NCBI GenBank assembly: GCA_035508735.1
Contig: DATJMM010000008.1
Location: 9,021 to 73,020 of the forward strand
Source of the DNA: Solirubrobacteraceae bacterium
GTDB taxonomy: Bacteria > Actinomycetota > Thermoleophilia > Solirubrobacterales > Solirubrobacteraceae
Direction of reading: 5' to 3'
DNA: 64,000 bases
How positions within the stretch are numbered: the stretch's first letter is position 1; every line of letters begins with the position of its first letter. Below are positions 28,497 through 37,292 of the stretch, piece by piece. Position numbers and translations under genes: made by a program. A model generated the notes under the pieces. That model was not told the origin of the DNA and did not search any database. It saw only the letters and a program-made list of their open reading frames with translations.

Positions 28497-28655
28497 ACAA
28501 CGATAATAGCAGGAAGCACAGATAAAAATTGAGGATGCCGATCAGGCCAGCAGATCCTTTAGAGACGCCGTGTCCGCCGGCGCAGGGCCCCCCCAAACAG
28601 GGGGTTGCAAGGGTCGTGCGGTAACGGCCTGCGCGCGCGTGGGTATGACTGCGCA

Positions 28656-29588
28656 GTGACGCGCCTCGAGCGAAACGTCAACATCGCCGCCGTGGTGGTC
28701 CCGTTCCTGGGGGTGATAGCGGCGGCGGCGGTGCTGTGGAACCACTTCCTCGGCGCGCGCGACCTGGCGATCTTCGCGGTGATGTACGCGCTCACCGCGC
28801 TCGGCATCACGGTGGGCTTCCACCGGCTGCTCACGCACCGCGCCTTCCAGACCCGCCCGTGGCTGCGCTGCACGCTCGCGGTGCTCGGCTCGATGGCGTT
28901 GCAGGGCCCGGTGATCGACTGGGTGGCCGACCACCGCAAGCACCACACCTTCACCGACGAAGAGGGCGACCCGCACAGCCCGCACGCAGGCCACGGCGCC
29001 GGCCTGCGCGGCATGCTCGCCGGCCTGTGGCACGCGCACGTGGGCTGGCTGTTCCAGACGCACGGGCAGGCCTCCTCCAAACGCTTCGCGCGCGACCTCG
29101 TGGAGGACGCCGCGATGAGGCGCATCAACCGCAACTTCCCGCTGATCGCGCTCGCCAGCCTCGCGATCCCGTTCCTCGCAGGCCTCGCGCTGAGCGGCGG
29201 CTCGCTCGTCGACGGGGGGCTGTCGGCGCTGCTGTGGGCAGGCCTCGTGCGCATCTTCCTGGTGCACCACGTCACCTGGTCGATCAACTCCATCTGCCAC
29301 TTCTTCGGCAGCCGCCGCTTCGACACCGACGATGAGTCCACCAACGTGTTCTGGCTGGCGCTGCCCTCGCTCGGCGAGGCCTGGCACCACAACCACCACG
29401 CCTTCCCGCAGTCCGCCTTCCACGGCCTGCGCTGGTACGAGCTCGACCCCTCCGGCTGGCTGATCCTCGGTCTCGAGCGCGTGGGGCTGGCCTGGGACGT
29501 GGTCAAGGTCACGCCCGAGCGCGCCCGCGCGAAGCTCGCGGGCGACGCCGAGACGAGCGCGGTCGGCGGCGCCACGCTGAGCGGCTGA
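28656..29588 (+). CDS. Acyl-CoA/acyl-lipid delta-9 desaturase
   Basis: His boxes HRLLTH, HRKHH and HHNHH; NSICH; GTG at 28656. Confidence 0.93.
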   Translation: MTRLERNVNIAAVVVPFLGVIAAAAVLWNHFLGARDLAIFAVMYALTALGITVGFHRLLTHRAFQTRPWLRCTLAVLGSMALQGPVIDWVADHRKHHTFTDEEGDPHSPHAGHGAGLRGMLAGLWHAHVGWLFQTHGQASSKRFARDLVEDAAMRRINRNFPLIALASLAIPFLAGLALSGGSLVDGGLSALLWAGLVRIFLVHHVTWSINSICHFFGSRRFDTDDESTNVFWLALPSLGEAWHHNHHAFPQSAFHGLRWYELDPSGWLILGLERVGLAWDVVKVTPERARAKLAGDAETSAVGGATLSG

Positions 29589-29627
29589 GGGCTCGCGCGA
29601 AGCTCGCCCGAGCGCTACCTTCTCGGC

Positions 29628-30287
29628 ATGAACGTGGTCCCGGCCGGGGCTGCCGTGAAGCCCAGCATGCGGGGCGTGCTGCACGAGTACGCCTTCTTCG
29701 TCTCGCTCGGCTGCGGCGTGGCGTTGATCCTGGCCGCCTCCGGCGGCCGCGCGCGCCTGGCCGCGTGCGTCTACGCGGGCGCGGTGTCGGCGCTGCTGGG
29801 CACCAGCGCGCTCTACCACCGCGTCACCTGGCGCCCGCGCGCGCGCCGCTGGATGCGCCGCCTCGACCACTCGATGATCTTCGTGCTGATCGCCGGCACC
29901 TACACGCCGGTGGCGCTGCTCGCGCTGAAGGGCGCGCTCGCGCACACGATCCTGCTGGTGCTGTGGCTCGGCGCGCTCGGCGGCGTGGTCTTCAAGCTGC
30001 TGTGGATCGACGCGCCCAAGTGGGTGTTCGCGATCGTGTACGTGGCGCTCGGGCTGGTCACCGCCGCCGTGATCGGCGAGCTGCCAGCAGCGATCGGCTG
30101 GCTGGGCGCCGCCGGGCTCGCCGGCGGCGGCCTGCTGTACGGCCTCGGCGCCGTCGTCTACGCCAGCGGCCGCCCCAACCCCTGGCCCAGGGTGTTCGGC
30201 TACCACGAGGTGTTCCACTCGCTAGTGCTGGCCGCCGCCGCCCTGCACTACGCCGTCATCGCCTTCGCGGTGCTGCCCCACCGCTGA
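29628..30287 (+). CDS. Hemolysin III/PAQR family membrane protein
   Basis: SALYH; RRLDHSMIFVLIAGTYTP; GYHEVFH. Confidence 0.93.
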   Translation: MNVVPAGAAVKPSMRGVLHEYAFFVSLGCGVALILAASGGRARLAACVYAGAVSALLGTSALYHRVTWRPRARRWMRRLDHSMIFVLIAGTYTPVALLALKGALAHTILLVLWLGALGGVVFKLLWIDAPKWVFAIVYVALGLVTAAVIGELPAAIGWLGAAGLAGGGLLYGLGAVVYASGRPNPWPRVFGYHEVFHSLVLAAAALHYAVIAFAVLPHR

Positions 30288-30990
30288 ACGCGCCGCGGCT
30301 CGGGCACATGCGCGCGAGCGCGCACTCGTCGCAGGCCGGGGCGCGCGCGTGGCAGGTGCGCCGGCCGTGGCGCAGCAGGTTCACGTGCAGCTCCAGCTCC
30401 TGGCCCGGCGGCGTCAGCGCCAGCATCTGGTCGTGCAGGCGCTCGAACGGCGCGCCCGGCTGCAGCAGGCGCAGGCGCGCGCCCACGCGCGAGACGTGCG
30501 TGTCCACCGGCACCTCGCGCAGGCCGTAGGCGAACAGCAGCACGCACGCCGCCGTCTTGCGCCCCACGCCCGGCAGCGACACCAGGTAGTCGCGGGCCTC
30601 GGCCAGCGGCACGTCCGCCAGCCAGTCGAGCGAGAGCTCGCGCCCCGGCGCGGGCGGGCGTTCGCCGATCGCGCGCAGGATCGCCTGGATGCGCGCCGAC
30701 TTCACCTTCGAGATGCCGCCCGGGCGGATCGCCTCCTCCACCTGCGCCAGCGGCGCGTCGCGCACCCGCTCCCAGCGAAAGCGAGACCCACCGAAGCGCC
30801 CGCGCAGGCGCAGGTAGGCGACGTCGCGGTTGCGGTCGTTGGTGGACTGCGAGAGCACCGTCAGCACCAGCTCGGCGATCGGGCGCCGATGCGGGCGCAT
30901 CAGCGGCACGCCGTAGACCTCGCGCAGGCGTTCGCGCACCCTCACCACGCGCGCCCGCGACGGCGGCTGCCAGCTGCGTGTCGAGCTCAC
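30256..30990 (-). CDS. Endonuclease III-like HhH-GPD DNA glycosylase with 4Fe-4S motif
   Basis: VLSQSTND; LPGVGRKTAACV; VPVDTHV; CHARAPACDECALARMC. GTG at 30990. Confidence 0.88.
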   Translation of the reverse strand: MSSTRSWQPPSRARVVRVRERLREVYGVPLMRPHRRPIAELVLTVLSQSTNDRNRDVAYLRLRGRFGGSRFRWERVRDAPLAQVEEAIRPGGISKVKSARIQAILRAIGERPPAPGRELSLDWLADVPLAEARDYLVSLPGVGRKTAACVLLFAYGLREVPVDTHVSRVGARLRLLQPGAPFERLHDQMLALTPPGQELELHVNLLRHGRRTCHARAPACDECALARMCPSRGAFSGGAAPRRR

Positions 30991-31016
30991 CGCTATATCC
31001 TCGCGCGATTCTCCAA

Positions 31017-32750
31017 GTGAGCGAGCACAGCGCGCGCAGCGGGCGATCCCGCTCGCGTCCGTGGTGGACGCTGCTGCCACCGGCCTGGACGATCACCGCC
31101 GCGGCCTCCGTGGCCTACCTGATCGCCGCGCCGCCCAGCCCCGACCTCGCCGCCGCCGGCTACCGCAGCTACCTCTTCTCCCACGCCGGCTTCACGCTGT
31201 GGGACAACTCCTGGTACGGCGGCCACCACCTGCTCGCCTACTCCGTGCTCGCCCCCGCGCTCGGCGCGCTGCTCGGCCCGCAGCCGCTGGCCGCGATCTC
31301 GATGGTGATCGCCACCGCGCTGTTCGCGATCCTCGTACGCGGCTGCTTCGCCGCGCGCCCGGCGCGCGTCGCCGCCGCCTGGTTCGCGCTCGGCGCCTCG
31401 GTGGCGCTGCTCTCGAGCCGCGTGCCGTTCGACCTCGGGCTGGCGGTGGGGCTCGCCGCGGCGCTGGCCGCCCAGCGGCGCAGGCTCGCGCCGGCGCTCG
31501 CGCTGAGCGTGCTGTGCGCGCTGGCCAGCCCCGTCGCCGGCGCCTTCGCCGGCCTCGCCTTCCTCGCCTGGGCGCTGGCCGGAGGCGAGCGCGCGTGGGC
31601 GTCGGCGCTCGCGCTCGCCTCGCTCGCCCCGATCGGCGCGCTCGCGCTGGCCTTCCCCGAAGGCGGCACGCAGCCCTACGTGGCCTCCGCCTTCTACCCC
31701 GAGCTAGCCGGCGTGCTCGCGATCGCCGCGCTGATCGAAAGCGCCCCCGCCGCGCGCGCCGCCCACGCCGCGCGCACGGCGGCGCTCTACGCGGGCGCCG
31801 GCGGCCTCGGCAGCCGCGCCGCCGCGCGCACCGCGCGGGCGCTGTCGCTGCTGCGCGTCGGCCTCGCGCTGTACGCGCTGGCGCTGATCGGCTCCTACCT
31901 GCTGCCCACCGCCGTCGGCGGCAACGTCGACAGGCTCGGCGCGATCGCCGCCGGCCCGGTGGCCGCCTGCGCGCTGGTGGACGCCACGCGCCTGCGCCGG
32001 ATCGCGCTGGCGGCGCTCGCGCCGCTGCTGCTCTACTGGCAGGCCAACGCCCCGGTCGCGGACTTCGCCGCGGCCGCCTCCGACCCCTCCGTGCACGCCT
32101 CCTACTACGCGCCGCTGCTGGGCGAGCTGCGCGCGCTCGGCGTCGGCTACGGCGCGCGCCCCGTGCGCATCGAGGTGGTCGCCACCGCCGACCACTGGGA
32201 GGCGCGCTGGGTGGCGGCGCACGCGATGATCGCGCGTGGCTGGGAGCGCCAGCTCGACACCTACCGCAACGGCCTCTTCTACGGCGGCCGCGCGCTCACG
32301 CCCGCGCGCTATCGCGCCTGGCTCGCGCGCAACGCGATCTCCTACGTGGCGCTGCCCGACGCGCCGCTGGACTACTCCGCCAAGGCCGAGGCGCGCCTGG
32401 TGCGCGCCGGCCCGCCCTACCTGCGCGAAGTGTGGCGCTCGGCGCACTGGCGACTGTTCGCCGTGCGCCACGCCACGCCGCTCGCCCAGGCGCCCGCCCG
32501 GCTGCTCGCCGCCACCAGCGACTCGCTCACGCTGTACGCGCCGCGGCCCGGCTCCTACACGGTGCGCGTGCGCTTCACCCCCTACTGGCAGCTCCAGCGC
32601 GCATTCGGCGCGCCGGGCGGCGCGGACGGCTGCGTGAGCGAAGGCCCGGAAGGCTGGACCGAGCTCGGCGTGCGCCGCGCCGGGCGCGTGCGCCTGGCGA
32701 TCTCCTTCTCGCTCGCGCGTGTGCTCGCCGACGGTCCTCGCTGCAGCTGA
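31017..32750 (+). CDS. Multi-pass membrane protein, GT-C-fold glycosyltransferase-like
   Basis: TM1 followed by a loop PDLAA..YR..WDNSWYGGH, more than 10 TM helices, and a C-terminal extracytoplasmic domain (RGWERQLD). Confidence 0.5.
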   Translation: MSEHSARSGRSRSRPWWTLLPPAWTITAAASVAYLIAAPPSPDLAAAGYRSYLFSHAGFTLWDNSWYGGHHLLAYSVLAPALGALLGPQPLAAISMVIATALFAILVRGCFAARPARVAAAWFALGASVALLSSRVPFDLGLAVGLAAALAAQRRRLAPALALSVLCALASPVAGAFAGLAFLAWALAGGERAWASALALASLAPIGALALAFPEGGTQPYVASAFYPELAGVLAIAALIESAPAARAAHAARTAALYAGAGGLGSRAAARTARALSLLRVGLALYALALIGSYLLPTAVGGNVDRLGAIAAGPVAACALVDATRLRRIALAALAPLLLYWQANAPVADFAAAASDPSVHASYYAPLLGELRALGVGYGARPVRIEVVATADHWEARWVAAHAMIARGWERQLDTYRNGLFYGGRALTPARYRAWLARNAISYVALPDAPLDYSAKAEARLVRAGPPYLREVWRSAHWRLFAVRHATPLAQAPARLLAATSDSLTLYAPRPGSYTVRVRFTPYWQLQRAFGAPGGADGCVSEGPEGWTELGVRRAGRVRLAISFSLARVLADGPRCS

Positions 32751-32773: not shown

Positions 32774-33565
32774 ATGCTCGCCCGCGCTCGTGTCCTGCAG
32801 GCGCGCCTGTTGCCCCACGGCTGGCTCGACGCCCTGCGGCAGCTCTCGCTGTTCGGCGCCGCCTACATCGCCTACCGGCTCGTGCGCGGGCTCGTCGAGG
32901 GTGACGCCAACGCCGCCTTCGCGCACGCACGCGACGTGATCGAGCTCGAGCGCAAGCTGCACATATTCGTCGAGCCCTCGATCCAGTCGTGGGCGTCCGG
33001 CAGCCACTTCCTGATGGTGGTGTGCAGCTGGCTGTACGTCAACGCGCAGACGAGCGTCACCGTGGCCGCGCTCGTCTACCTCTACATCTGCCGCAACCGC
33101 AACTTCTACTTCGTGCGCAACATGCTGATGGTGGGGATGGCGCTCGCGCTCGTCGGCTACGTCATCTTCCCCACCGCGCCGCCGCGCTTCATGCCGGAGT
33201 GGGGCTTCGTGGACACCGTCGCCGACGTCACCGGCGTGCACGTCAACCACGACAGCGCCTCGCTCAACGCGCTCACCAACCTGTACGCCGCCGTTCCCTC
33301 CATGCACGTCGCCTTCGCGCTGATGATCGGCTGCTCGCTGTCACGGCTGGCGCGCTGGCGCCTCTCGCGTGCGCTGTGGCTCGCCTACCCGCTCGTGATC
33401 GCGTTCGTGATCATCGTCACCGCCAACCACTTCGTCACCGACGCCCTGCTCGGCGCCATCACCGCCGCCATCTCCGCCTACGCCGCCAGCTGGATGGCGC
33501 GCGCGCGACCGCAGGCCTGGCGCTTCTCCGCGGTCGGACCGGCGCAGCTGAGCGCCAGCGGATAG
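32774..33565 (+). CDS. PAP2-like AUR1/inositol-phosphorylceramide synthase-family protein
   Basis: FPTAPPRF; YAAVPSMHVAFA; TANHFVTD (His, His, Asp retained). Confidence 0.8.
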   Translation: MLARARVLQARLLPHGWLDALRQLSLFGAAYIAYRLVRGLVEGDANAAFAHARDVIELERKLHIFVEPSIQSWASGSHFLMVVCSWLYVNAQTSVTVAALVYLYICRNRNFYFVRNMLMVGMALALVGYVIFPTAPPRFMPEWGFVDTVADVTGVHVNHDSASLNALTNLYAAVPSMHVAFALMIGCSLSRLARWRLSRALWLAYPLVIAFVIIVTANHFVTDALLGAITAAISAYAASWMARARPQAWRFSAVGPAQLSASG

Positions 33566-33581: not shown

Positions 33582-34262
33582 ATGGCTCCCACACCGCCCC
33601 GCCAGCGCGCCCCCACGCGGCGCGCGCGCAGGCGCGCTCGCCGCGCCGGCGCCCACGGCCAGCGCGCGCCGATCGGCGCAGGACAGCGGCGCGAGCTCGT
33701 GCGCAACCGCCTGATCGAGTCGCGCCTGACGCCCAACGCAATCTCGCTCACCGGCCTCGCGCTCAACCTGGTCGCGGCCGTGCTGGTGTGGGAGCGGTAC
33801 TTCTTCCTCGGCGGCATCGCCTTCATCGTCGGCTCGATCATGGACACGCTCGACGGGCGCTACTCGCGCATGTCCGGCAAGGGCACCCCCTTCGGCGCGT
33901 TCCTCGACTCCACGCTCGACCGCATCGAGGAGGGCATCGTGCTGACCGCCGTGGCCGGCTACTTCGCGCTGCACGGCCAGCGCGTCGCCGCCGCCGCCGT
34001 GGTCGTCGCCGTGCTCGCCTCGCTGATGGTCAGCTACACGCGCGCGCGGGCGGAGGCGCTCGGCGTCGAGTGCAAGGTCGGCGTCGCCACCCGCCCCGTG
34101 CGCGTCGTGATCCTCGCCGTCGGCCTGGTGTTCGCCCGCGGCGCCTCGCTCGGCAGCTTCGAGCTGCTGCGGCCCGCCGTCTACGTGCTCGCCGCGCTCA
34201 GCGTGTTCACCGTCGCGCAGCGCATCTGGCACGTGCGCCGCGAGCTCGCCGGTGTGACCTAG
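33582..34262 (+). CDS. pgsA: CDP-alcohol phosphatidyltransferase (probable PIP synthase)
   Basis: LTPNAIS; DTLDGRYSR..G..GAFLDSTLDR; SYTRARAEALG; directly upstream of ino1. Confidence 0.85.
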   Translation: MAPTPPRQRAPTRRARRRARRAGAHGQRAPIGAGQRRELVRNRLIESRLTPNAISLTGLALNLVAAVLVWERYFFLGGIAFIVGSIMDTLDGRYSRMSGKGTPFGAFLDSTLDRIEEGIVLTAVAGYFALHGQRVAAAAVVVAVLASLMVSYTRARAEALGVECKVGVATRPVRVVILAVGLVFARGASLGSFELLRPAVYVLAALSVFTVAQRIWHVRRELAGVT

Positions 34263-34352: not shown

Positions 34353-35624
34353 GTGATCAAGCAGCACTCAAACGGCCGTGCGTCTGCGAACGGCTCGGCC
34401 TCCAAGAACGGTGCCGCCCGCTACCAGTCCGAGAAGGTGCGTGTGGCGATCGTCGGCGTCGGCAACTGCGCCTCGGCGTTCGTGCAGGGCGTGCACTACT
34501 ACCGCCACGCCGACCCCGCCGAGCGCGTCCCCGGCCTCATGCACGTGGACCTCGGCGGCTACCACGTGCGCGACATCGAGTTCACCGCCGCCTTCGACAT
34601 CGACGCCAAGAAGGTCGGCAAGGATCTCGGCCAGGCGATCTGGGCGGGGCAGAACAACACCATCAAGTTCGCCAAGGGCGCGCGCGCGGTGCCCGCCAAG
34701 CTCGGCGTGCCGGTGCACCGCGGCATGACCCACGACGGCCTCGGCAAGTACCTCAAGGAGAAGATCGTCAAGGCTCCCGGCGAGACCGCCGACATCGTCA
34801 AGATCCTCAAGGACACGCACACCGACGTGGTCGTCTCCTACCTGCCCGTCGGCTCCGAGCAGGCCACCAAGTGGTACGTCGAGCAGGTGCTCGAGGCCGG
34901 CTGCGGCTTCGTCAACTGCATCCCCGTGTTCATCGCCCGCGAGAGATATTGGGACAGGCGGTTCAAGGAGGCGGGGCTGCCGATCGTCGGCGACGACATC
35001 AAGTCGCAGGTCGGCGCCACGATCGTGCACCGCACGCTCGCGCGGCTGTTCGCCGACCGCGGCGTCGAGATCGAGCGCACCTCGCAGCTCAACGTCGGCG
35101 GCAACATGGACTTCTACAACATGCTCGAGCGCGAGCGCCTGGAGTCCAAGAAGATCTCCAAGACAAACGCCGTCACCTCGATCATGGATCACCAGCTCCC
35201 GGCGGACGACGTCTACATCGGGCCCTCCGACTACGTCCCCTGGCTCACCGACCGCAAGTGGGCGCACATCCGCGTCGAGGGCCAGGCCTTCGGCGACGTG
35301 CCGCTCAACGTCGAGCTGAAGCTCGAGGTGTGGGACTCGCCCAACTCCGCCGGCATCGTCATCGACGCCGTGCGCTGCTGCAAGCTCGCGCTCAACCACG
35401 GCGTCGGCGGCCAGCTCGACGGCCCCTCCTCCTACCTGATGAAGTCGCCCCAGAACCAGCGGCCCGACGAGCAGGCGCGCCGCGACACCGAGGCCTTCAT
35501 CGCCCGCCATGCCGGCCAGCCCCGCACCAGCGCGAAGGGGAGGCGCCCGGCGGCGGCGGGTCGCTCCTCGCGCCGCGGGCGCGCCGCCGCAGCCGGCGCC
35601 GGCAAAGCCGCAAAGAGCGAATGA
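34353..35624 (+). CDS. ino1: myo-inositol-1(3)-phosphate synthase
   Basis: [11 protein letters not shown]; [10 protein letters not shown]; LNVGGNMDF; [12 protein letters not shown]. Confidence 0.96.
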
Positions 35625-35672
35625 CCGCCGCCGGCGAGCGCCCGCCGCACGCGCCATAATCGCTGTCAGTCG

Positions 35673-37136
35673 ATGGCCGCCCCGTTCTCGATAGCCCACG
35701 TCACGCCGTACCCGTGGGAGGACGAGCACGGCGAGGTAAACGCGCACGTGCGGCGCGTCGCCTCGGAGCTCTCGCGCCGCGGCCACCGCGTGCTGGTGCT
35801 GGCGCCCTCGCGCTCGCAGGAGCGCGTGCGCGACTCGCGCCGCGAGCTGCGCGCCGCCCGCAGCTGCGCCGGCGGCGGCGCCACGCTGCTCGACGGCAGC
35901 GACGGCGGCACGCCGCGCGTGCTCGCCGTCGGCGAGGTGCTGGACTTCCGCGGTCCCGCCATCCCGCTCGTGCGTCGCCGCCCCGCCGCGCTGCCGATCG
36001 ACGTCGCGCGCACGCTCGAGGAACTGCTCAGCACCGTGCCGCTCGACTTCGTGCACGTGCACGAGCCGTTCGCGCCCAGCACCGCCGCCGCCGCGCTGCG
36101 CTGCTCGCCAGCGCTCAACGTCGGCTCCTTCCACTCCTCCTCGGAGCGGCTGCTCTCCACGGTCGTCGCGCGGCGCTTCGTGGAGAGCTTCTTCGGGCGC
36201 CTCGACGCGCGCACCGCCAGCCAGCCCGAGACCGCGCGGCTGATGGCCCAGCACTTCCCCGGCGACTACCGGCTCGTGCGCGACGACGAGCGCGCCGCCG
36301 ACGCGCTCGAGCGCATCTACCACGACCTCCACGCCCGGCGCCACTCCCACCACGGCGATCCGCAGCTCGCCCGGCGCCTCAGCCGCCGACCCCTCATAGA
36401 TGTCGACCTGCACATGCACACCGATCACTCCCACGACTGCGCCACGCCGGTGGAGGTGCTGCTGGCCAGCGCCCGCGAGCAGGGCCTCGGCGCGATCGCC
36501 GTCACCGACCACAACGAGATCTCGGGCGCGCTCGAGGCGCAGGCGCAAAGCGCCGCCGCCGGCGTCAAGGTGATCGTCGCCGAGGAGGTCAAGACCGCCG
36601 GCGAAGGCGAGGTCATCGGCCTGTTCATCGAGGAGAAGATCCCGCGCGGGCTGAGCCTCGCCGACACCGTCGCCGAGATCAAGCGCCAGGGTGGGCTCGT
36701 GTACGTGCCGCATCCCTTCGACCGCATGCACGCCGTGCCCGACTACCAGCACCTGCTCGAGATCCTCCACGACGTCGACGCCATCGAGGTCTTCAACCCG
36801 CGCGTCGCGATCAGCGCCTTCAACGACGAGGCCGTGCGCTTCGCCGCCAAGTACCGCATCCTCGCCGGCGCCGGCTCCGACGCGCACGTGCCGCAGGGGC
36901 TCGGCTCCGTGCGCGTGCGCATGCGCGACTTCGACGGCCCCGCCGAGTTCACGCAGTCGCTGCGCGACGCCGAGATCCTTACGCGCCCCTCCTCGCTGCT
37001 GTACGTGCAGGCGCTCAAGTTCCTGCAGACGCGCGCCACGCCGCGCTCCGCCCGCCGTGCCAGTCGCGCCAGGCGCCTGCGCCGCGTGCGCGCCGCCCAC
37101 CACGGTCGCGCGCGCGCCCGCGGCGGGCGCCGCTAG
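35673..37136 (+). CDS. GT4/PimA-like N-terminal domain fused to a PHP phosphoesterase
   Basis: IAHVTPYPW..HVRRVASEL..GHRVLVLAPS; VHVHEPFAPS; GSFHSS; then DLHMHT, AVTDHN, AEEV, PHPFD, EVFN, GSDAH. No GT-B C-terminal domain. Confidence 0.8.
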   Translation: MAAPFSIAHVTPYPWEDEHGEVNAHVRRVASELSRRGHRVLVLAPSRSQERVRDSRRELRAARSCAGGGATLLDGSDGGTPRVLAVGEVLDFRGPAIPLVRRRPAALPIDVARTLEELLSTVPLDFVHVHEPFAPSTAAAALRCSPALNVGSFHSSSERLLSTVVARRFVESFFGRLDARTASQPETARLMAQHFPGDYRLVRDDERAADALERIYHDLHARRHSHHGDPQLARRLSRRPLIDVDLHMHTDHSHDCATPVEVLLASAREQGLGAIAVTDHNEISGALEAQAQSAAAGVKVIVAEEVKTAGEGEVIGLFIEEKIPRGLSLADTVAEIKRQGGLVYVPHPFDRMHAVPDYQHLLEILHDVDAIEVFNPRVAISAFNDEAVRFAAKYRILAGAGSDAHVPQGLGSVRVRMRDFDGPAEFTQSLRDAEILTRPSSLLYVQALKFLQTRATPRSARRASRARRLRRVRAAHHGRARARGGRR

Positions 37137-37292
37137 GCGCGTGCTGCGGCGAGCGCACGCCGGCTTCGCGCGCCCCGAGCGCCCGCTGCCGAGCCCACGC
37201 GCGCGGGGCCCACGCCCGCCGGCCGCGCCCCCGCGCAACTACTGATGCACCGTCAAGGACAAGCCGGCGACCCGTCAAATCCCTCGGGGGCG

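Follow-up and report, generated by a model that had tools for sequence, protein, structure and literature searches.

A 64,000-nucleotide stretch of Solirubrobacteraceae DNA (hereafter the window; GenBank assembly GCA_035508735.1, contig DATJMM010000008.1, positions 9,021 to 73,020, forward strand) encodes a protein in which one half of a PimA-type glycosyltransferase is joined to a complete PHP phosphoesterase domain. The source is a high-GC metagenome-assembled genome of 3.2 Mb, 91% complete, from the class Thermoleophilia. We found that this 487-aa fusion, P0001, is a real conserved protein and neither a chance open reading frame (ORF) nor a frameshift. Its architecture, its intact PHP site, the PimA origin of its first half, the disappearance first of donor-site residues and later of the donor domain, and its conserved neighbourhood were all computed directly, and we regard the architecture as solid. 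The function that we propose, at a probability of roughly 0.45, is that of a cytoplasmic, peripherally membrane-associated phosphatidylinositol phosphate (PIP) 3-phosphatase whose PimA half would serve head-group and membrane recognition; we consider this a good but unproven hypothesis.

A PimA-type half-fold joined to a PHP domain

P0001 is the stop-free translation of the ORF at 35673-37136 (+), and the GC content at third codon positions (GC3) of its gene is 0.96, the level usual for genuine genes of the host genome. Pfam placed Glyco_transf_4 over residues 22-196 (E 7e-12), PHP over residues 245-378 (E 2e-13; 51.3 bits, gathering cut-off 26.4) and PHP_C over residues 384-433 (E 8e-11; 41.8 bits, gathering cut-off 21.3), while the same scan gave no match in P0001 to Glycos_transf_1, the C-terminal domain of the GT-B fold. 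This short architecture accounts for more than 8000 clusters at 90% identity in public data. Long ORFs that lie on the opposite strand or overlap the gene, such as the 956-aa ORF at 34368-37238 (-), were rejected as artefacts of the high GC content, having low GC3 and no family match.

A preliminary description of this gene, made from the DNA alone, had proposed a GT4/PimA-like N-terminus, quoted a set of motifs for the two halves, and suggested a structural model and Foldseek search as a check. The AlphaFold2 model (predicted local distance difference test, pLDDT, 86; predicted template modelling score, pTM, 0.81) has one Rossmann half plus a cross-over helix ahead of the PHP domain. Mycobacterium smegmatis PimA (4n9w/2gej) was the top sequence match in the Protein Data Bank (PDB) for the N-terminal part, and in Foldseek PimA ranked above BshA and MshA for that part; the remainder led to PHP enzymes, namely RNase AM, TM0559, PsfC, BAD_1165 and Cv1693. 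A profile built on the family matched PimA at 6e-51, compared with 1e-21 for the next GT4 enzyme and 6e-18 for MshA, which identifies the glycosyltransferase module, by sequence, as a paralogue of PimA. The motifs PYPW, HVHEP..PS, FHSS, HMH, DH and DAH are all in P0001, so the preliminary assignment of both halves held on every line of evidence, including a complete PHP metal site. Its further proposal, that a helix after the N-domain is the terminal helix of a GT-B fold, also stood: AADALERIYHDL aligns with the final GT-B helix of full-length relatives (DELEALYHAL).

The PHP domain is, judged by conservation, the constrained part of the fusion. Across 19 diverse family members D245, H247, H249, D279, H280, E305, H347, D350, E372, N375, D403 and H405 were invariant, and the same ligand residues were invariant in a second set of 26. 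When we aligned 20 diverse long forms of the protein, mean pairwise identity was 56% in the PHP domain with 35 invariant columns, compared with 29% and a single invariant column in the N-domain, and 25% and none in the GT-B C-domain. Residues 241-440 were modelled mostly at pLDDT above 90. With both Pfam models above their gathering scores and the His/Asp/Glu ligand motifs in place, P0001 belongs by sequence to the PHP superfamily; within NCBIfam its PHP domain fell below every curated cut-off, the nearest model being CehA/McbA (NF038032; 72.3 bits against a cut-off of 80), a name that some public annotations of relatives carry.

Beyond the PHP domain, the C-terminal helix SLLYVQALKFLQT is conserved in the family, with L448 and K449 invariant, and it is followed by a polybasic tail with a net charge of +14 across 33 residues. 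The PHP domain itself is acidic and the protein has no transmembrane segment, a charge pattern and topology compatible with a peripheral protein on anionic membranes.

Loss of the glycosyltransferase donor domain

Across Thermoleophilia, relatives of P0001 are proteins of 600-700 aa that carry a whole PimA-like GT-B fold in addition to PHP. In other genomes of its family, order and class, P0001 found its match as two segments, separated by about 500 nt and in a single frame, and one such long form, P0121 (650 aa), has Glyco_transf_4, Glycos_transf_1/Glyco_trans_1_4, PHP and PHP_C. The gap in the alignment of P0001 spans about 170 residues, between 'FPGDYRLV..ERAA' and 'DALERIYHDL', and corresponds exactly to the second Rossmann domain; P0001 still has the last GT-B helix. 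The preliminary description had supposed that the nucleotide-sugar-binding domain was cleanly excised, and the long relatives indeed hold these residues, which were removed in frame. The long form was modelled at pLDDT 89.5 and pTM 0.86, and its glycosyltransferase part superposed on PimA 2gej with a template modelling score of 0.79 and a root mean square deviation of 3.6 Å.

The residues that PimA uses for its donor had already changed before the domain was lost. In P0001, PimA G16 is replaced by E21, and R196, K202, E274 and E282 fall in the deleted domain; in the long fusions, the GG loop (G16), the Lys of PRKG (K202) and the first Glu of EX7E (E274) are replaced relative to canonical PimA. 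These are GDP-mannose-binding and essential residues of PimA (PMC9202250). Since donor-site residues are gone already in the long forms, the glycosyltransferase part of the fusions is probably inactive. On the acceptor side, P0001 keeps PimA Y9 (as Y13), H118 (as H154) and the HEPxAPS motif (HVHEPFAPS). Measured against a retaining GT4 glycosyltransferase, P0001 thus has the N-domain and the acceptor residues and lacks the two-Rossmann fold and the donor-site residues. The Arg of the 'ERAA' remnant aligns at or beside PimA R201, a position on which HMMER and MAFFT differ by one residue, and we gave it no weight.

A canonical PimA is encoded elsewhere in the same genome (contig C62:29672-32104 (-), 811 aa, 5.8e-48 to 4n9w), with its GG, ERKG and GGESFG..TEA motifs intact. 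It is fused C-terminally to a multi-transmembrane domain of about 400 aa, a 780-810-aa architecture (approximate lengths) found in most Solirubrobacterales, where it accompanies the long fusion. The idea that the fusion is the PimA of this genome was rejected on the strength of this gene and its counterparts in most relatives.

The fusion gene was carried by 79 of the 81 genomes of the family Solirubrobacteraceae, and by all of the high-quality ones (55/55); among the 81, the short form occurred only in the genus of the window. Among the 80 species genomes nearest by PHP sequence, all of them Solirubrobacterales, 42 had the short form and 34 the long. When the tree was built from only the PHP domain, the short/long character required 2 changes, compared with 22.7 when labels were shuffled, and a single clade of short forms (39 short forms) was not rejected (approximately unbiased test, p 0.6). 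Because the short forms cluster on this tree and a single clade is not rejected, the simplest reading is one deletion event in the Solirubrobacteraceae sub-lineage that includes the host genome. A second, distant short form, P0160 (455 aa, 39% identity), is sister to the long P0161 and has its own deletion boundaries, and its branch appears to have lost the GT-B C-domain independently; P0160 is known from one 1.7-kb contig only (L043:183-1550, Logan SRR25727065).

The linker that joins the N-domain to PHP is of uneven length among members of the short-form clade. It is longer by 32 to 36 aa at loci L082, L114 and L128 and by 18 aa at L105 and L124, and shorter by 21 aa at L068, L101 and L102, which suggests additional trimming, or leftover residues, following the main deletion.

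A candidate phosphatase for phosphatidylinositol phosphate

Solirubrobacter makes phosphatidylinositol (PI) and phosphatidylinositol mannosides (PIMs) (PMC10722151). Mycobacteria form PI by way of PIP, with a phosphatase that in 2019 was described as 'yet-unidentified' (PMC6506517); in Bacteroides the PIP phosphatase is the PgpA-like BT_1525 (PMC9246714). We found no match to the PgpA domain (PF04608) in 12 genomes of the class (the host and 11 relatives), while control genomes did match, and in 12 class genomes no MshA (TIGR03449) scored above the 462.5-bit cut-off, the best in the host reaching 165 bits.

The preliminary description placed the gene directly after pgsA-ino1. This was confirmed: the upstream genes are a CDP-alcohol phosphatidyltransferase of the PIP/archaetidylinositol phosphate (AIP) synthase type (PIPS) and the myo-inositol-3-phosphate synthase gene ino1. 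Of the three findings that it named as refuting its proposal, two were looked for and neither held, namely an N-terminus unlike GT-B and a fusion unlinked to ino1/pgsA in other genomes; the linkage was seen to persist as far as about 40% identity. The genes for PIPS, ino1 and the fusion adjoin on one strand in about 17 of the 22 genomes of the class; four others show loose linkage and one shows none. Their order was kept in three distant representatives at 38-43% identity, and in essentially all of the 80 Solirubrobacterales loci with enough flank. Given the PIPS-ino1 context, the PI and PIMs of Solirubrobacter, the lack of PgpA and MshA in the genomes tested, and features compatible with a peripheral protein, PIP phosphatase is the most economical assignment.

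In the mechanism that we propose, the fusion would convert PIP, the product of PIPS, to PI, with the multi-metal PHP domain providing the chemistry. The PimA-derived N-domain and cross-over helix would dock the protein on the membrane and recognise the inositol-phosphate head group, with no glycosyl transfer, and the resulting PI would pass to the separate canonical PimA for PIM synthesis. Substrate, N-domain role and membrane association are what we infer here from the sequence, the models and the gene context.

Several observations weigh against this assignment. In Foldseek, the closest characterised PHP structures are phosphoesterases that act on nucleotides or RNA. Relatives of the PHP domain that stand alone (37-47% identity) adjoin non-inositol genes, in the contexts TldD-PmbA-PHP-UppP or NTP-transferase, purD-purB-purQ-PHP, xseA-xseB-PHP and a GT4/GT2/ATP-grasp cluster, and they also occur in genomes without ino1. 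The basic membrane patch of PimA, 77-RKVKK-81, is not conserved and reads RTLEE in P0001. Where the cluster is split, it breaks between ino1 and the fusion, which remains with a downstream gene for a uracil-DNA glycosylase (UDG)-like protein; the wider region is a broadly syntenic housekeeping block, so the gene-order evidence is weaker than it looks. A PAP2_3 membrane protein encoded in the same cluster is itself a rival candidate for the PIP phosphatase. Finally, Corynebacterium glutamicum has no PHP_C protein at all, and because this PHP type is absent there the role would be at best lineage-specific and not 'the actinobacterial' solution.

Further points against the assignment come from another family of Thermoleophilia, f4. 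Three f4 genomes (G184, G197 and G015) have a fusion with a dead PHP domain, in which DLHMHT has become DLRVRT or DLRLRP, TDHN has become AAPG or SSPQ, and GSDAH has become GSAAA or GSGAS. In a fourth, G131, the place between PIPS and the UDG-like gene is taken by a PimA-like paralogue without any PHP. Members of f4 keep the PimA-like part, with an EX7E-like motif, and these genomes retain PIPS and ino1. PgpA was absent from the f4 genomes with dead or missing PHP, a PAP2_3 homologue was absent from G184 as well, and no substitute phosphatase was visible in the f4 cluster. Because PIPS and ino1 are kept there without a live PHP domain, f4 must use some other PIP phosphatase.

In one alternative, PIP is dephosphorylated by PAP2_3, or by a phosphatase shared with f4, and the core of the fusion is its PimA-like N-domain, acting as a PI/PIP scaffold or as a regulator of PIPS or PimA, with PHP as an accessory. 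The N-domain is the sole part common to the short, long, dead-PHP and PHP-less forms, f4 copes without active PHP, and in most Solirubrobacterales PAP2_3 lies immediately before PIPS; PAP2 enzymes include lipid-phosphate phosphatases. Outside f4, however, no other part comes near the PHP domain in conservation, and all of its metal ligands are invariant, which is unlike the decay of an accessory. PAP2 active sites, moreover, usually lie on the outer face of the membrane, the opposite side from the cytoplasmic one on which PIP is made. A PAP2_3 homologue was not found at E<=1e-8 in G045, G030, G060, G075 or G184, and the phosphatase reading of the fusion is supported in that several genomes with PIPS-ino1-fusion do without PAP2_3. 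We think this alternative as a whole unlikely.

The PHP domain might instead act on another inositol or phospholipid phosphate, such as inositol-3-phosphate, phosphatidylglycerol phosphate (PGP), phosphatidyl-alcohol phosphates or a phosphorylated PIM-type intermediate, with the PimA half recognising inositol or lipid. The evidence of the PIPS-ino1-fusion context applies to such substrates too. Stand-alone PHP proteins are found in genomes that lack ino1 but have a CDP-alcohol transferase, those of f36 stand beside UppP or PAP2_3, in keeping with a broader lipid-phosphate role, and with no PgpA in the 12 class genomes PGP phosphatase is also left without an assigned gene. Nothing singles out those substrates, however; the PIP-synthase pathway needs no free inositol, and a PI-binding PimA half placed after PIPS-ino1 points most simply to PIP. 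We regard a different lipid or inositol substrate as distinctly unlikely.

On structural grounds, a nucleic-acid or nucleotide phosphoesterase has also to be considered, one that is RNase AM/TrpH-like, a pAp phosphatase, or active in processing 3' ends or apurinic/apyrimidinic (AP) sites in partnership with the UDG-fold protein, so that the inositol setting would be mere synteny. The top structural neighbours of the PHP domain are RNase AM (7ug9, 4.7e-10), Cv1693 and the PolC PHP domain, with EndoQ among them too; the polybasic tail could bind nucleic acid; and one stand-alone relative follows xseA-xseB while another lies in a purine cluster. No neighbour is more tightly conserved than the UDG-like gene, which adjoins the fusion in 79 of 80 loci and does so in class families f1-f5 and f7. 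Yet this gene is unlinked in f6, and its product is without the catalytic motif of family 4. In G131 the gene comes after the PimA-like paralogue that has no PHP, so the link is not to PHP. Scores against the RNase RNM model (NF047791; 34.3 bits, cut-off 375) and the 3',5'-nucleoside bisphosphate phosphatase model (NF041577; 45 bits, cut-off 400) are far under their cut-offs, and the alignments cover just the first ~70 residues of the domain. A role in nucleic-acid metabolism would moreover leave unexplained a fusion to a PimA paralogue kept through the whole history of the family, and we find it improbable.

That the fusion is MshA2, the N-acetylglucosamine-inositol-phosphate phosphatase of mycothiol synthesis, which to our knowledge is without an assigned gene, we reject as very improbable: the adjacent ino1 best matches the 'mycothiol_INO1' model and the acceptor of MshA is an inositol phosphate, but no MshA passes the cut-off in the 12 class genomes, the family profile places the glycosyltransferase module with PimA, ahead of MshA by 30 orders of magnitude, and the partner gene is a PIP synthase.

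The PIP phosphatase reading can be extended to a broader proposal, which we put forward tentatively and at less than even odds. The PimA acceptor half would be a portable head-group and membrane module that passes phosphatidylinositol-3-phosphate to the PHP domain; the fusion would be the first PHP lipid-phosphate phosphatase, and, after BT_1525, a second and non-homologous solution for the PIP-to-PI step; and its history would be one of stepwise, reciprocal domain death. Sequence comparison points to such a pattern, in which the glycosyltransferase donor site decayed and was then deleted in the host lineage, PHP died or was lost in f4, and the PimA N-domain was always kept. Our literature search turned up no publication on a PIP phosphatase of the PHP type or on a fusion of GT4 with PHP, and no description of a lipid phosphatase in the PHP superfamily.

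Gene neighbourhood and comparison with known systems

The fusion stands in a block of same-strand genes (Table 1) with intergenic gaps of 16-108 nt. Gene calls in the block were filtered by GC3 and then scanned against families. A scan of the 30.5-38.5 kb interval for promoter and terminator consensus sequences found none, which speaks neither for nor against an operon. The first gene encodes a protein with many hydrophobic segments within its first ~380 aa and no Pfam or NCBIfam match, and a homologue occupies the same position in most of the 80 Solirubrobacterales loci. The PAP2_3 protein, whose gene precedes PIPS in families f1-f3 and f7, has a weak NCBIfam match to phosphoinositol dihydroceramide synthase (1.7e-7); it may be an inositol-phosphotransferase instead of a phosphatase. 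PIPS matched the NCBIfam models archin_ph_syn (8e-41) and PIPSynth (1e-39), both under the curated cut-offs, compared with 3e-7 for pgsA. The ino1 product matched TIGR03450 at 2.6e-161 and 537 bits, under the 638-bit equivalog cut-off. The UDG-like protein matched family-4 UDGs in the PDB (5e-7) and retains the Fe-S Cys residues; it has KYAALP in place of GEAPG and VPS in place of HPS, and the family-4 catalytic motif is lost.

Table 1. Features of the fusion gene and its same-strand block in the window, with the loci of family f4 given in their own coordinates.
Feature	Position	Strand	Basis
Polytopic membrane protein, 590 aa, with C-terminal soluble part, GT-C-like by appearance; first of block	30978..32750	+	GC3 0.96; hydrophobic segments
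PAP2_3 membrane protein (AUR1/inositol phosphorylceramide (IPC)-synthase-like PAP2 branch)	32774..33565	+	Pfam PAP2_3 2.3e-40
CDP-alcohol phosphatidyltransferase, PIP/AIP-synthase type (PIPS)	33582..34262	+	Pfam CDP-OH_P_transf 6.9e-16
myo-Inositol-3-phosphate synthase (ino1)	34353..35624	+	Pfam Inos-1-P_synth 2.6e-37
P0001: PimA-type GT-B N-terminal (acceptor/membrane) Rossmann domain, residues 1-205	35673..36287	+	Pfam, PDB match, Foldseek, family profile
P0001: last helix of the GT-B fold, kept (AADALERIYHDLH; helix 208-220 in the model), with linker to PHP, residues 206-240; site of in-frame ~170-aa deletion	36288..36392	+	Alignment with long forms; model
P0001: PHP + PHP_C metal-dependent phosphoesterase domain, residues 241-440, full ligand set	36393..36992	+	Pfam, NCBIfam
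P0001: C-terminal helix SLLYVQALKFLQT, polybasic tail and stop codon, residues 441-487	36993..37136	+	Alignment, model, composition
Divergent family-4-like UDG-fold protein, 217 aa	37245..37898	+	Pfam UDG 1.9e-8
f4 locus, G184	L038:8033-9850		
f4 locus, G015	L133:827-2455	-	
f4 locus, G131	L132:1662-2855		

Upstream of the block, at 28605-30287 (+), are genes for a fatty-acid desaturase and a membrane protein of the haemolysin-III/PAQR family, and an HhH-GPD glycosylase on the opposite strand (30256-31080) stands between them and the block. The host genome has a second copy of PAP2_3 at C61:41662-42366.

Other PHP proteins were seen in these genomes. Examination of seven contexts did not bear out the idea that stand-alone PHP genes of other lineages adjoin PIPS/ino1. 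In f36 genomes a PAP2_3 gene lies about 3 kb from the stand-alone PHP gene (L039:12011-12952). A stand-alone PHP_C protein of 229 aa is encoded at L050:14327-15016 (-), about 5 kb downstream of a long fusion and beside YjbQ and HSP70. The host genome also encodes a 795-aa protein of reverse order (C41:~34800-37186 (+)), with an N-terminal PHP-like region (MHCHSSAS, TDHDT, GSDDHAG; PHP_C 23 bits) followed by an intact GT4 enzyme with canonical KEKG and EX7E-type motifs.

PI synthesis in bacteria and archaea runs via PIP, and the phosphatase of the last step in actinobacteria is without an assigned gene (PMC6506517). The sole assigned bacterial PIP phosphatase, BT_1525, belongs to a family absent from the genomes tested here. 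A conserved, soluble candidate encoded by a single gene makes the PIP-to-PI step directly testable for a class dominant in soil, and the 487-aa short form is the simplest construct for expression. If our assignment is true, PHP chemistry extends to lipid head groups. The short form suggests that half of a GT-B fold can persist as a stand-alone recognition domain, which is relevant to pseudoenzyme evolution and to protein engineering. The reach of the proposal is limited, in that Corynebacterium, and probably Mycobacterium, lack this PHP type, and the medically relevant actinobacteria would not be solved by it alone.

Four known systems offer comparisons. The closest is M. smegmatis PimA, the GT4 GDP-mannose:phosphatidylinositol alpha-1,2-mannosyltransferase, to which the N-domain of the fusion, and the whole GT-B fold of its long relatives, are paralogous. 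In the mycobacterial pgsA1-patA-pimA operon pimA comes after the PIP synthase gene, as the fusion does here; unlike PimA, P0001 is without the donor-binding domain and has a PHP phosphoesterase fused on, and a separate canonical PimA exists in the genome. BT_1525 of Bacteroides thetaiotaomicron (Heaver et al. 2022, PMC9246714) has been assigned the step that we propose for the fusion, in a similar cluster of myo-inositol-phosphate synthase (MIPS), PIP synthase, phosphatase and PAP2-type phosphoinositol dihydroceramide (PI-DHC) synthase. The two proteins are not homologous, and BT_1525 is backed by genetics and lipidomics, whereas the fusion is known from sequence and models.

Among PHP enzymes, RNase AM/YciV (7ug9, 9etk), the 3',5'-nucleoside bisphosphate phosphatase Cv1693 (2yb1), TM0559 (2anu) and BAD_1165 (3e0f) have the fold and the His/Asp/Glu ligand motifs in common with P0001, at about 17-24% identity, but P0001 differs in its glycosyltransferase half and its lipid-gene setting. 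Sucrose-phosphate synthase with its SPP-like domain likewise joins a GT4 module to a phosphatase of one pathway. In P0001, however, the phosphatase is PHP and not HAD, and in the fusions the catalytic residues of the glycosyltransferase, or its donor domain, are gone, so the logic of the fusion would be recognition plus phosphatase rather than two successive reactions.

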